A stretch of DNA of 32,000 bases from Candidatus Methanoperedens sp. Its GTDB lineage: Archaea > Halobacteriota > Methanosarcinia > Methanosarcinales > Methanoperedenaceae. Positions 28,154 to 31,193 of the stretch are shown piece after piece; the stretch's first letter is position 1; every line of letters begins with the position of its first letter. The DNA is taken from positions 30,001 through 62,000 of the forward strand of contig JBGQBI010000002.1 of assembly GCA_041494705.1 (NCBI GenBank), read 5' to 3'. Both the position numbers and the translations under genes were made by a program. The notes under the pieces were generated by a model that saw nothing but the letters and a program-made list of their open reading frames with translations, searched no databases and had not been told where the DNA came from.

Positions 28154-28234
28154 CTATGCCCCCAACACATATTTTAGGTATTGTGGACAGATATGCGCTT
28201 TCACAATTTTTTCAGCGTATAAGAATTCATTAAC

Positions 28235-28261
28235 CGCAGATGAACGCAGATGAACGCAGAT
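28235..28261. repeat. Tandem decamer CGCAGATGAA x2.7 (solo arm related to the palindromic repeat family)
   Basis: Read directly: CGCAGATGAA CGCAGATGAA CGCAGAT, preceded by AC. It shares the ACCGCAGA core with the right arm of copy B. Confidence 0.8.
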
Positions 28262-28383
28262 TGGTTGTTTCATATTCTCCATATTTTTATTTAATTGTGT
28301 TTATCATAAATTCTCTTTATAAATCCGGCGACGTCATGAAATCCCCACGCGCCGTCTGTCGTGGTGCGCCGCGCCTGTATGCT

Positions 28384-28403
28384 GGGGAGGGCGGGGAGGC
28401 GGG
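28384..28403 (+). other. Canonical G-quadruplex motif within a polypurine tract of about 50 nt
   Basis: GGGG A GGG C GGGG AGGC GGG, read directly. The purine-rich run continues to about 28434. Confidence 0.8.
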
Positions 28404-28469
28404 AGGAGGCGAAGGTGAGGGTGCGGAGGAGTGGATTCATGGCATTTTTTCTCACTTCGAGTATCATTT

Positions 28470-31193
28470 TTACGCAAATAGCACCTCATATTTAGATTCC
28501 AATCTCTTTTTGATATTATCTTCAAAAGTCCCCCCAATTTCATCATTGTATAGCATGTTCATTACTTTCCATCTATCATTTGTGCTATTGCTTTTGGCGA
28601 GCAAATATGCCCACAAAGGCATTTTTACGAGATGTTCCATAATTACAAATTGATTTTCTTCTTTAATGTCATCCCAGAACTTTTCAGGAACTACTTCAAC
28701 CATTTTATAAGTAACAAATCTTGTATGAAGATCAGTTTCAGGAAGGTCTTGCACTGCTCCAATATCGTATATCAATTCATCTAAAACTCTACGAGTATTC
28801 AAAAATCTTGCATCATTCTCAAATTTCTTATCCTTATAGACCAGTTCAATAATATTGATGAGTTCTTCTTCTGTGAGTTCAGAATTAGATTTTTCTTTCA
28901 GAATTTCAAGACCTTTTGCTGTAATCTCTGGTGGATAAAATCTTGTCGAAGATTCATCCTGTTGAAATACATGCACGATTCCCTTTTTAGAGCTTCTTTC
29001 ACGATTGACTCTACCTGCCCTCTGGATAATAGCTTCTAAGGGAGCGCCTTCAGTATAAAGAACATCATAATCAATATCCATTCCACATTCAATAACTTGG
29101 GTTGCTACTAATATTTGTGGCCATGATTGATCCATTCTGGATTTTTTCTTATCCTTCTCCAATTTCTTTTCTTTATTCCTTCTATCCTTCGCTATAAAAC
29201 GAGAATGAAGACACATCGGCTTGACTTGAAGATTATTATTTGTAAATTGCTTATATGCATCTTGAGCTGCCTTTACTGTATTACAAACGATGGCAACACG
29301 TTTACCTTTTTCATATATTTTTAGTTTCCCATTTTCAGTCTTCACAATAAACTCGTCAATTCTAACTTTATTGATTATCAGAATTACTTTGGATTTTTCA
29401 TTATCAAGACTTAGGGAAATACAATTTTTTTCAGCAGATACATTAATAGTTGTATCATCATTGATTTTATCAATTGTTGCTGTTTTTAACCAATCCAGAT
29501 TATAACTCTTCCATAGAAAGTCGATTAGTATCCCCGTATCATTTTTAAGAATTTCATCCCAACTAAATAAATATCTATTTTCAATGTATTTTTCAATTTC
29601 ATCTACAACTTTTTTTGAGATTTTTTCTTTCTCGAATAGCGTTTTTTCATTAACTCTATACTCATTTCTTGCATTCTGTAAAAGAGTTATATCCTTTATA
29701 ATATGATTTGCTCCCTTTATGTATAATAATTTTGAAAGGAAATCGATCAAATTCTTGGACATCGTTGCACTCATAAAAAGCATCTTAGAATAATCCCTGA
29801 GTTCACGAGTAACCCTCTCCAAAAGTGCAAGCATATGCCCATCATATGCATGAATTTCATCGAAAATAATGGCGCCCCCCATCACTTCACCCATAATTAC
29901 AGACCATCGTTTATTTCCATTAAAAGCTGTCATTAGAAGCTGGTCAACAGTCGCTACCATGATCGGTCTAAACATCATCCGATTGAGTCTATGAATCTCT
30001 TTTTCACTTTCAGTAGGCTTGAATTCTTGTGGGTCATACTGTTCAGGTTCATCAGTTTCCAAACGGTTTAAAATCTGATACAAAGGTGCACTACTATGAA
30101 GTAATCCAACATTTTCTTCCCCAAAATATTTTGTCAATCTTTCATAAATGCTGTTCGTTAGTACCTGATTAGGGAGTACATATAAAATTTTCCCATCCAA
30201 TTTTTTATTTTTTAAAGCCCATGCAATAGCTCCTTCTGTTTTTCCTGAACCTGTTGGAGCAACTGCAATTCCATGTCCTGCGAGCCTAGTAAGGTCTTGC
30301 TGGAAGTCTCTAATTTCAAAAGTTTTAGAGCCATCTTGTTCAATATCTTCCTTTACTTTTCTCCAAAAATCATCTACAGATGTGTTAACAGTTAAATGCA
30401 TTTGATTATTTGATGAACCTTCCCAATCTGCCGAAATCAATAGACTTTTTAGCAAAGCAAGTGTTCCTCTTATCTGACCAATAACCTTTGTTTCACCAGC
30501 GGAATCAATGGCTTCCTGGACTTCAAATGGGATCGCATCAATTTTCTCTTTGATAGTTTCTATTATGGTCTGACTATTTTTATTGACTTCTTTCCACGTC
30601 ACATTTGGCAATGAGATTCCTTCGTTTTCAAAAATGATTCTTGCGACTTCCATGACGTGATTCCATTGCGCTTCACCATACCCAATCCTGCTTAGTTCAT
30701 TAGAATCTCCAAAAAATTCGTTCCATTCTCGCCTGAAACTATCGGGATTAATCGGCTTATGATGTCCGATTGCTGCAAAAAATTCAAATGGAAATCCATT
30801 AGTCTCAAGCTTTCCATCTGATTCGTCATATTTAGAACCCAAGCAGAGTAAAGCCAATCCACCTATAATCTCATGTCTATAATCAATCTTGTCACTCTGA
30901 GATGGAAATGGTATGAGAGTTTCACATTTATTACAAAAAACCTGAGAAGTAGGCTTTTGTCCTTTCAGAGCTATCGTTTTCATTGCACGTTGAAAGCTTA
31001 AAGATGGTTTTCCAGCATCATGAAAAGCGACAGTTAATAACGAAGCTATTTTAAATCTTTCCGGGAGAATTGCATATTGATTGCATAAATCTTTTATTAC
31101 GTTTTCCTTTTGATAATATAATTTCTTCCAAGAGTTATAAACTGTTTCGATATGACATTTATAGCATTGTTTTGGCTTTCCAAAATAGGTCAT
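28470..31193 (-). CDS. cas3: CRISPR-associated Cas3: N-terminal HD nuclease fused to SF2 helicase, with internal insertion
   Basis: 907 aa. HD motifs: CHIE, FHDAGK, YRHE, GHHKP. Helicase motifs: I APTGSGKT, II FDEIH, III SAT, V ATQVIECGMDID, VI QRAGRVNR. The ATG lies 3 nt after the cas5 stop. Confidence 0.92.
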   Translation of the reverse strand: MTYFGKPKQCYKCHIETVYNSWKKLYYQKENVIKDLCNQYAILPERFKIASLLTVAFHDAGKPSLSFQRAMKTIALKGQKPTSQVFCNKCETLIPFPSQSDKIDYRHEIIGGLALLCLGSKYDESDGKLETNGFPFEFFAAIGHHKPINPDSFRREWNEFFGDSNELSRIGYGEAQWNHVMEVARIIFENEGISLPNVTWKEVNKNSQTIIETIKEKIDAIPFEVQEAIDSAGETKVIGQIRGTLALLKSLLISADWEGSSNNQMHLTVNTSVDDFWRKVKEDIEQDGSKTFEIRDFQQDLTRLAGHGIAVAPTGSGKTEGAIAWALKNKKLDGKILYVLPNQVLTNSIYERLTKYFGEENVGLLHSSAPLYQILNRLETDEPEQYDPQEFKPTESEKEIHRLNRMMFRPIMVATVDQLLMTAFNGNKRWSVIMGEVMGGAIIFDEIHAYDGHMLALLERVTRELRDYSKMLFMSATMSKNLIDFLSKLLYIKGANHIIKDITLLQNARNEYRVNEKTLFEKEKISKKVVDEIEKYIENRYLFSWDEILKNDTGILIDFLWKSYNLDWLKTATIDKINDDTTINVSAEKNCISLSLDNEKSKVILIINKVRIDEFIVKTENGKLKIYEKGKRVAIVCNTVKAAQDAYKQFTNNNLQVKPMCLHSRFIAKDRRNKEKKLEKDKKKSRMDQSWPQILVATQVIECGMDIDYDVLYTEGAPLEAIIQRAGRVNRERSSKKGIVHVFQQDESSTRFYPPEITAKGLEILKEKSNSELTEEELINIIELVYKDKKFENDARFLNTRRVLDELIYDIGAVQDLPETDLHTRFVTYKMVEVVPEKFWDDIKEENQFVIMEHLVKMPLWAYLLAKSNSTNDRWKVMNMLYNDEIGGTFEDNIKKRLESKYEVLFA

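Follow-up and report, generated by a model that had tools for sequence, protein, structure and literature searches.

The cas3 gene in a 32,000-nucleotide stretch of a Candidatus Methanoperedens sp. genome (GenBank assembly GCA_041494705.1, contig JBGQBI010000002.1, positions 30,001 to 62,000; hereafter the window) encodes a protein of 907 amino acids (aa) with 90 extra residues between the two lobes of its helicase core. These residues are probably explained by the tolerated in-frame insertion of a small mobile element that encodes a protein domain and resembles a MITE (a miniature transposable element with inverted repeats). The same module is found in many unrelated proteins, and this spread is accounted for by a DNA-level element with terminal inverted repeats (TIRs), target-site duplications (TSDs), empty sites and nested self-insertions.

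The original prediction had singled out an 89-aa string in Cas3, and the minus-strand translation of 29304-29570 gives exactly this string as aa 542-630 of the 907-aa open reading frame (ORF). When the protein was aligned with 13 orthologues, a clean gap of 90 columns was seen at aa 540-629 (RYLFSWD...KLKIYEK), right before the first RecA2 strand: the carrier reads ...EIEKYIEN / RYLFSWD...KLKIYEK / GKRVAIVCNTV and the insert-less orthologues read ...YIEN-GKRVAIVCNTV. Three Cas3 sequences only (907-909 aa) contained the segment, the next homologues (82-87% identity) being ~820 aa long, and a fourth carrier was found in L063, which has the same synteny as the window operon. (L001 is the 22.7-kb locus around the window's cas operon; L003, L004, L007 and L063 are related cas operons.) All other orthologues, from 87% identity down, lacked exactly 90 columns. 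The carriers form a terminal cluster of 3-4 sequences among the more than 100 orthologues listed, and the segment is lineage-specific, being absent from ordinary close orthologues. As the carriers stem from independent assemblies (JGI 3300053059, GCA_041643135.1, GCA_053537735.1, GCA_053530535.1 and Logan runs), the insertion is not an assembly artefact. The synonymous divergence (dS) among carriers was 0.28-0.32, below the 0.37-0.41 to the nearest non-carrier, which fits one gain in the carriers' common ancestor. The normal spacing between motif III and the RecA2 strand had been put at a few dozen residues; this was too low, since orthologues without the insert have ~65 aa and solved Cas3 structures ~80-95 aa, and the excess is therefore 90 aa, not ~120.

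At the DNA level, 66 unique copies with flanks were obtained from 61 loci. These loci were gathered with peptide patterns at the module ends, so that conservation of the ends could have been an artefact. An nhmmer model was built from 46 of the copies and scanned over the 392 kb of loci; on the window it matched 29573-29314 with an E value of 3e-55, and the protein profile gave 2e-42. The features of the Cas3 copy are as follows.

29313-29574, minus strand: 262-bp in-frame element that takes up the last base of codon 540 and codes for the 87-aa module (Cas3 Y541-Y627), from nhmmer and the TIR/TSD analysis
29561-29574, minus strand: 5' TIR, ATATTTATTTAGTT (family consensus GTATTTGTTTAGCT), 12/14 complementary to its own 3' TIR
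29313-29326, minus strand: 3' TIR, AACTAAAAATATAT (family consensus AGCTAAACATATAC), read from the sequence and by comparison of copies
29575-29582, minus strand: upstream copy of the 8-bp TSD, GAAAATAG, matching the downstream copy at 6/8 positions and the empty site of L007, GAAAATGG, at 7/8
29305-29312, minus strand: downstream copy of the 8-bp TSD, GAAAAAGG, read from the sequence

The length of the element is constant, the span from the first to the last Tyr codon being 261 nt in 46/66 copies. Consensus ends of the 66 copies were gTATTTgTTTAgCT... and ...AgcTaAAcATATAc, and they are conserved as nucleotides: the 5' end is gTATTTgTTTAgCTGGGA and the 3' end AAgcTaAAcATATAc, the reverse complement of which is gTATATgTTtAgcT. 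The two consensus ends are complementary at 13/14 positions, giving a 14-nt TIR, GTAT(T/A)TGTTTAGCT, with a probability of arising by chance of about 1e-7 to 4e-6. Synonymous codon choice at the ends departs from that in the interior of the copies. Leu2 is TTG in 76% (7% for interior residues), Ser4 AGC in 88% (19%), Lys83 AAG in 85% (23%), Leu84 CTA in 70% (24%), Asn85 AAC in 86% (35%), Ile86 ATA in 93% (32%) and Tyr87 TAC in 73% (25%). Among 15 copies that lay outside the selection made by the scan, Ser4 (AGY), Asn85 AAC and Ile86 ATA were nearly fixed; conservation was weaker at Leu2, split between TTA and TTG, and at Leu84, where CTA was used in about half.

The duplication of the target site is independent of the bias in collecting the ends. 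Over the 66 copies, a direct repeat in the flanks was seen in one register only, with a z score of about 10 against permuted pairings. Upstream positions -9 to -2 matched downstream positions +0 to +7, with per-position agreement of 0.47-0.64 against a null of 0.24-0.45, and the positions outside were unmatched. Because the matching stops so sharply, the duplication is of 8 bp and the conserved G at -1 belongs to the element. Perfect 8/8 TSDs flank four copies: L040 (GAAGGAGT), L015 (GATAAAGG), L042 (CAAAAATT) and the copy in cas7 of L003 (GAGAAATC). As 262 + 8 = 270 bp is 90 codons, the downstream reading frame is preserved.

Empty sites were found for two insertions in the insert-less operon L007. 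For cas3 the empty site reads ATT GAAAATGG C, against ATT GAAAATAG-A(261 nt)-GAAAAAGG T in the window. For cas7 the empty site reads GAGAAGCC T TCT, and L003 reads GAGAAATC-G(261 nt)-GAGAAATC T TCT. The Cas7 of L003 (contig JBGGHD010004579.1, positions 1-714, a fragment) has one copy in a C-terminal loop (DNA model E 9e-67), with near-consensus TIRs in addition to its perfect TSD; its nearest relative is not the Cas3 copy but one in a KAP NTPase (72%), and it is absent from cas7 of L001, L004, L007 and L063. The cas5 gene of the same contig (729-1463) has one in-frame stop (YPFYP*SLGRP); this may reflect either decay of the operon or an error of sequencing.

The element also inserts into its own copies. 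In many proteins, module positions 2-X are followed by a whole module (2-89) and then by X-89, with X at predicted loops (27, 33, 40, 49, 56 and 59). Nested insertion was seen in the DNA of L017 with a 7/8 duplication (GAATTTAG / GAATATAG), and L021 is a second case.

The consensus element is free of stops only in the frame of the module and in one antisense frame. Its only long open sense frame is the 87-aa module, which has no family match, and no transposase gene lies inside. The open antisense frame (reverse strand, frame 1) would give a Phe/Ser/Leu-rich peptide of 87 aa, so that an antisense in-frame insertion adds no stops; no antisense in-frame copy was present among the 87 DNA-level matches. 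The folding energy of the element was -19 kcal/mol, compared with -14.6 +/- 3.3 for shuffled sequences (z -1.35), complementarity being confined to the 14-nt ends, and no Rfam match above threshold was obtained.

At the protein level, the statement in the original prediction that the segment belongs to a family of small modules was sound: the profile consensus, YLFSWDEIPGNDN.RLIEFL...IDWVKTAKIEKIDDGKTI.VSTEKNSLSLKLNDEKTKVNLKIDDGRTDEFI.KTENGKLNIY, agrees with the pattern that had been given. The segment alone matched a 124-aa Methanoperedens protein (E 3e-20, 57% identity), the relatives of which are small: an N-terminal module precedes hydrophobic stretches that look like two transmembrane helices. 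A profile search returned 1,859 cluster representatives at E<=1e-3, of which 1,235 also passed E<=1e-10, with 1-11 copies per protein in N-terminal, C-terminal and internal positions. The taxonomic spread was as anticipated, Methanosarcinales-related archaea and a few bacteria, and the modules were stand-alone, terminal or internal. When one genome per species was scanned, the hits were mostly in Ca. Methanoperedens, with several loci per genome, and also in anaerobic methanotrophic archaea (ANME-1, ANME-2 and ANME-3), one Altiarchaeales genome and a few bacteria. Host proteins include NB-ARC/nSTAND3 (STAND) and KAP NTPases, GAF, TPR, pentapeptide, PLD, PRTase, Baseplate_J, RAMP, CHAT, S-layer and replication factor C (RFC) proteins, and the module often lies within their other domains. 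Matches to PF03787 (RAMP superfamily) were found in 2/75 further host proteins (among P0136-P0280), so CRISPR-associated proteins beyond the window Cas3 and the L003 Cas7 have also been struck.

The proposed search with aa 542-630 alone thus gave similarity to stand-alone modules and to no curated family: in Pfam, NCBIfam and PADLOC no family rose above threshold, whether the query was the segment, the consensus of the family or a small stand-alone member. Names such as Toastrack, PH_15 and Phyto-Amp appeared only as sub-threshold noise and were rejected. No description of the module or of the element family was found in the literature, within limited coverage of subscription journals.

In 7/66 copies (L018, L028, L032, L037, L039, L041 and L054) the codon before the element is ATG; the first base of the element, G, is the third base of this start codon, and in these copies the protein therefore has the module as its N-terminus. 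One such group is P0001-P0015, a family of small Methanoperedens proteins that, with two hydrophobic helices, read as membrane proteins. The C-terminal tails LSLIHISEPTR and VSYTHLRAHETR/VSYTHLTLPT of P0002, P0007 and P0011 are what we take to be translated Nextera/Illumina adapter, and some metagenome-derived family members thus look as if they end in adapter contamination and not in real protein.

The prediction that the module is autonomous was borne out by structural modelling. AlphaFold2 (AF2) gave a compact alpha/beta fold for the module alone, with a predicted local distance difference test score (pLDDT) of 93.1 and a predicted template modelling score (pTM) of 0.81; the order of elements is strand, two helices, six strands. 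The same secondary-structure elements were present at aa 540-628 in the model of full Cas3, with strand 1 of RecA2 following at 633-636. The segment is thus predicted as a separate run ahead of this strand, not as an integral part of RecA2. Foldseek searches against the PDB and the viral BFVD gave no significant match (best E 0.12 and 0.023, TM <=0.44). Frataxin was the best match in the PDB and was rejected, with a TM of 0.40 and an E value of 0.12.

Ratios of nonsynonymous to synonymous divergence (dN/dS) were calculated for the insert and for the rest of the gene. Among Cas3 carriers the insert gave 0.49, 0.26 and 0.26 (binomial p 0.07, 8e-4 and 1.3e-3). For the remainder of the gene it was 0.14-0.22, and comparisons with the insert-less P0019 fell in the same range; as this is unchanged from the insert-less comparisons, Cas3 stayed functional after the insertion. 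Both the insert and Cas3 are under purifying selection, and the inserted peptide is constrained. For the interiors of paralogous copies dS was about 1.1 and dN about 0.40 (dN/dS about 0.36). The open frames and dN/dS below 1 suggest that the module is translated.

These results are consistent with the following mechanism. A small non-autonomous element would have inserted once into cas3 in the ancestor of a small Ca. Methanoperedens lineage, mobilised in trans by a putative DDE-type transposase, and the TSDs point to a staggered cut of 8 bp. The 8-bp TSD and the GTA- terminus recall the IS66/ISBst12 family. Of the six combinations of phase and orientation, one would read through as the 87-aa module; stops lie in the remaining sense phases and in two of the antisense ones, so that the gene would be disrupted and the insertion presumably purged. 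Because the encoded domain would fold by itself, copies survive at loops, where the host protein can keep working. The many internal and nested sites suggest that the N- and C-termini of the module are close together. That only in-frame copies are seen may be because imprecise deletion is impossible inside useful genes. In Cas3 the landing site would be the linker just before RecA2 strand 1, giving a predicted globular appendage between the helicase lobes, and the insert is probably functionally near-neutral rather than co-opted. None of the results calls for a function of this appendage.

A broader proposal can be made, to which we give somewhat less than even credence. The element may represent a class of archaeal mobile DNA not described before, a 'domain transposon', that spreads as DNA and persists by means of a frame-preserving length and a self-folding, insertion-tolerant domain. 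It would actively generate protein architectures in Methanoperedens and ANME archaea, including those of Cas3, Cas7 and RAMPs, and some copies may have been co-opted, for example as homotypic tethers of Cas3 to other module-bearing proteins.

Several observations weigh against transposition of such an element. The loci searched, a small space (392 kb, gapped patterns of up to 600 bp), yielded neither an autonomous element nor a transposase with matching ends. TIR-like sites lacking a mate at ~262 bp were considered as an autonomous partner and rejected, being degenerate or nested copies, and L024 was without a transposase. All of the DNA-level matches (87/87) were open in the frame of the module; none was intergenic, antisense or out of frame, which is unusual for MITEs. 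A sample entirely in frame may result from survivorship or from the protein-based collection of loci. YLFSW and KLNIY, the two peptide motifs with the highest conservation, lie at the TIRs, so that constraint on DNA and on protein is entangled there. Strong fixation is also seen at some codons of the interior (Leu56 CTT in 94%, Ile67 ATC in 83%). Purifying selection on the peptide, as measured among the copies, would agree with a genuine molecular role as well. In the Cas3 copy the TSD matches at no more than 6/8 positions and each TIR is three positions off consensus; for these reasons the Cas3 copy alone, without the family, would be weak evidence. As to carriage by viruses, an exact-match scan of IMG/VR with one 17-mer from the 5' end of the element gave a single chance match inside an unrelated ORF, and such carriage is unsupported.

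The original prediction was that the segment acts as a homotypic adaptor, recruiting or regulating Cas3 through another protein with the same module. Of this, the autonomous, lineage-specific module and its large family stood; a homotypic adaptor role is not supported by them, since the hosts are functionally unrelated and the spread is DNA-driven. A co-opted adaptor, binding the same module in Cas7/Cascade, in a STAND/KAP NTPase or in the small membrane proteins P0001-P0015, is therefore considered unlikely. In its favour are the presence of the module on NB-ARC/nSTAND3 and KAP NTPases as well as on proteins resembling effectors (PLD, PRTase, CHAT), purifying selection on the insert, predicted membrane-anchored stand-alone versions in Methanoperedens and the L003 operon, in which Cas7 and Cas3 each have a copy. 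However, the expected partner near the cas operon was not found, no second copy being present in the window or in the 22.7-kb locus. In the window operon only Cas3 has the module, Cas7 there and in the syntenic L063 being without it; L001, L004 and L063, like the window, have a single copy each, and the second copy in L003 is independent, very recent and limited to the one contig whose cas5 has an in-frame stop. Nor do housekeeping and structural hosts (RFC, S-layer) and nested copies fit the logic of an adaptor. The module has no match to a curated adaptor family, and the Cas3 copy has lost the IPGND motif conserved in the family, reading ILKND.

Ordinary domain shuffling, in which a fragment of a module gene entered cas3 by illegitimate or microhomology-mediated recombination and no transposition machinery was involved, is very improbable. 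The GAAAA microhomology common to the flanks, the stand-alone genes that begin exactly at the module and the failure to find a transposase in the loci searched would all suit it. One-off events, however, leave unexplained the constant length, the inverted termini with their fixed synonymous sites, the nested copies and a duplication fixed at 8 bp over 66 copies from many taxa. Least credible of all is that the segment is an ancestral integral accessory domain of RecA2 lost elsewhere, or an intein or intron removed from the mature protein: the 8-bp direct repeats would match deletion boundaries and could have mediated precise loss, but the alignment contradicts this, the carriers being a terminal cluster with the lower dS, the segment is predicted as a run separate from RecA2, an intein would be longer and would need junction residues that are missing here, Gly coming right after the insert, and the absence of an Rfam match and the unremarkable folding energy argue against an intron or structured RNA. 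Insertion of the MITE-like element is thus the reading retained here.

The gene that received the insertion has the following features.

28470-31193, minus strand: cas3 (HD nuclease, superfamily 2 (SF2) helicase and C-terminal domain), 907 aa, host of the insertion, from the ORF, Pfam/NCBIfam and AF2
30408-31160, minus strand: HD nuclease domain, aa 12-262, from TIGR01596 (aa 12-261) and PF18019 (aa 32-262)
29742-30269, minus strand: RecA1 lobe (DEAD/ResIII), aa 309-484, with motif III (SAT) at aa 475-477, from PF00270
28995-29306, minus strand: RecA2 lobe (Cas3-like_C_2/Helicase_C), aa 630-733, beginning right after the insertion, from PF22590

The ORF is a bona fide Cas3. In the NCBIfam scan TIGR01587 (cas3_core) scored 237.5 bits (cut-off 102.45) and TIGR01596 (cas3_HD) 45.7 bits (cut-off 43.45); PF18019 (Cas3_HD) scored 23.4 bits (cut-off 23.1), and the Pfam scan gave E values of 1.3e-34 for PF22590 on aa 630-733 and 6e-17 for PF00270 on aa 309-484. 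The HD residues H58, D59, H107, H144 and H145 were invariant in an alignment of 81 homologues, as were the RecA1 motif residues. Above-threshold profiles and invariant residues together uphold the claim that Cas3 has a complete set of HD and SF2 motifs. The AF2 model of the full protein had a pLDDT of 84.9 and a pTM of 0.85, and its top fold match was T. fusca Cas3 (E 1e-22).

The gene order is cas6b-cas8b-cas7-cas5-cas3, with cas3 last; cas8b was assigned by size and cas7 is DevR. No cas1, cas2 or cas4 gene and no CRISPR array was found within 22.7 kb around the operon. The window is assigned to Candidatus Methanoperedens by an FtsZ cluster at 90% identity. A perfect 32-nt inverted repeat with a 10-nt repeat unit, AACCGCAGATGAACGCAGATGAACGCAGAT, flanks the operon at window positions 28231-28262 (L001 12932-12963), and further positions are L001 4791-4822, 5067-5099 and 5246-5286, with two extra copies upstream of cas6. 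The GC content of the operon is 0.36, compared with 0.42-0.49 in the remaining window, and its neighbourhood in L004 is not the same as in the window. Possible readings are an interference-only cassette that is mobile or was acquired horizontally, or else a regulatory role for the 32-nt repeat. The window lineage's Cas7 (471-473 aa; L001 7830-9245, just past the window end) has a K/E-rich insert of ~85-100 aa at aa ~105-195 that is absent from the 369-aa Cas7 of the insert-less operon L007 and is not matched by the module model; a further in-frame insertion is one possible origin. The public record also has a gene call for an antisense ORF of 137 aa over the 3' end of cas3 (28240-28653, plus strand), which is of low complexity, matches no family and is probably spurious.

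The element offers a concrete DNA-level route for placing a whole folded domain inside working archaeal proteins, a process usually known from protein alignments only, and the family amounts to thousands of copies in methane-oxidising ANME archaea. Its closest precedent is the Rickettsia palindromic elements (RPEs), which are selfish, peptide-encoding repeats lying in frame inside genes (Ogata et al. 2000, 2002, as summarised in PMC10969869 and PMC3184786); some bacterial MITEs are also in-frame, peptide-encoding repeats (PMC10969869, PMC3184786). Like the RPEs, the element is short, repeated, mobile DNA found in frame within unrelated protein-coding genes. RPEs measure about 105-150 bp and form a palindrome over their whole length, whereas the element is 262 bp with discrete 14-nt TIRs, an 8-bp TSD and no long hairpin. 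It differs further in encoding a complete 87-aa globular alpha/beta domain (predicted), in being archaeal (ANME/Methanoperedens), in its presence in at least 1,859 protein clusters and in inserting into its own copies.

Prokaryotic MITEs are non-autonomous TIR elements mobilised in trans (reviewed in PMC10969869). Structurally the element would be one of them, being small, with TIRs, a TSD of fixed length, high copy number, no transposase of its own and empty sites in relatives, bar the autonomous partner not found in the loci searched. Typical MITEs are mostly intergenic and non-coding; the copies of the element, in contrast, are all in frame within ORFs, their peptide is under purifying selection, and the element together with its TSD has a length divisible by three.

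The module also has a likeness to the effector-associated domains (EADs) and Death-like adaptor domains of STAND-NTPase conflict systems, reportedly described by Kaur, Burroughs, Iyer and Aravind in 2020-2021. The module is similar to these domains in its size (~90 aa), in its occurrence on STAND/KAP NTPases and effector-type proteins, in its many positions and in the absence of enzymatic motifs. It differs in having no match to a curated EAD or Death family, in being often internal and nested rather than terminal, in having non-conflict proteins among its hosts and in a spread that bears the signature of DNA transposition. This calls for caution in arguments from guilt by association: a module on STAND NTPases, effectors and Cas proteins mimics an adaptor and may be a transposon footprint.

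With the solved Cas3 structures (T. fusca 4QQW, T. terrenum 4Q2C and type I-C 8ZNS) the window Cas3 shares the HD, RecA1, RecA2 and C-terminal organisation and every motif. The difference lies in the domain directly before RecA2 strand 1, which the solved proteins and more than 100 closest orthologues do not have. The junction of RecA1 and RecA2 thus tolerates a 90-aa insertion, predicted to be globular, and is a natural permissive site that might be put to use for engineered fusions; the module itself, a compact predicted fold with no match in the PDB or the viral BFVD, may serve as an insertion-tolerant scaffold.

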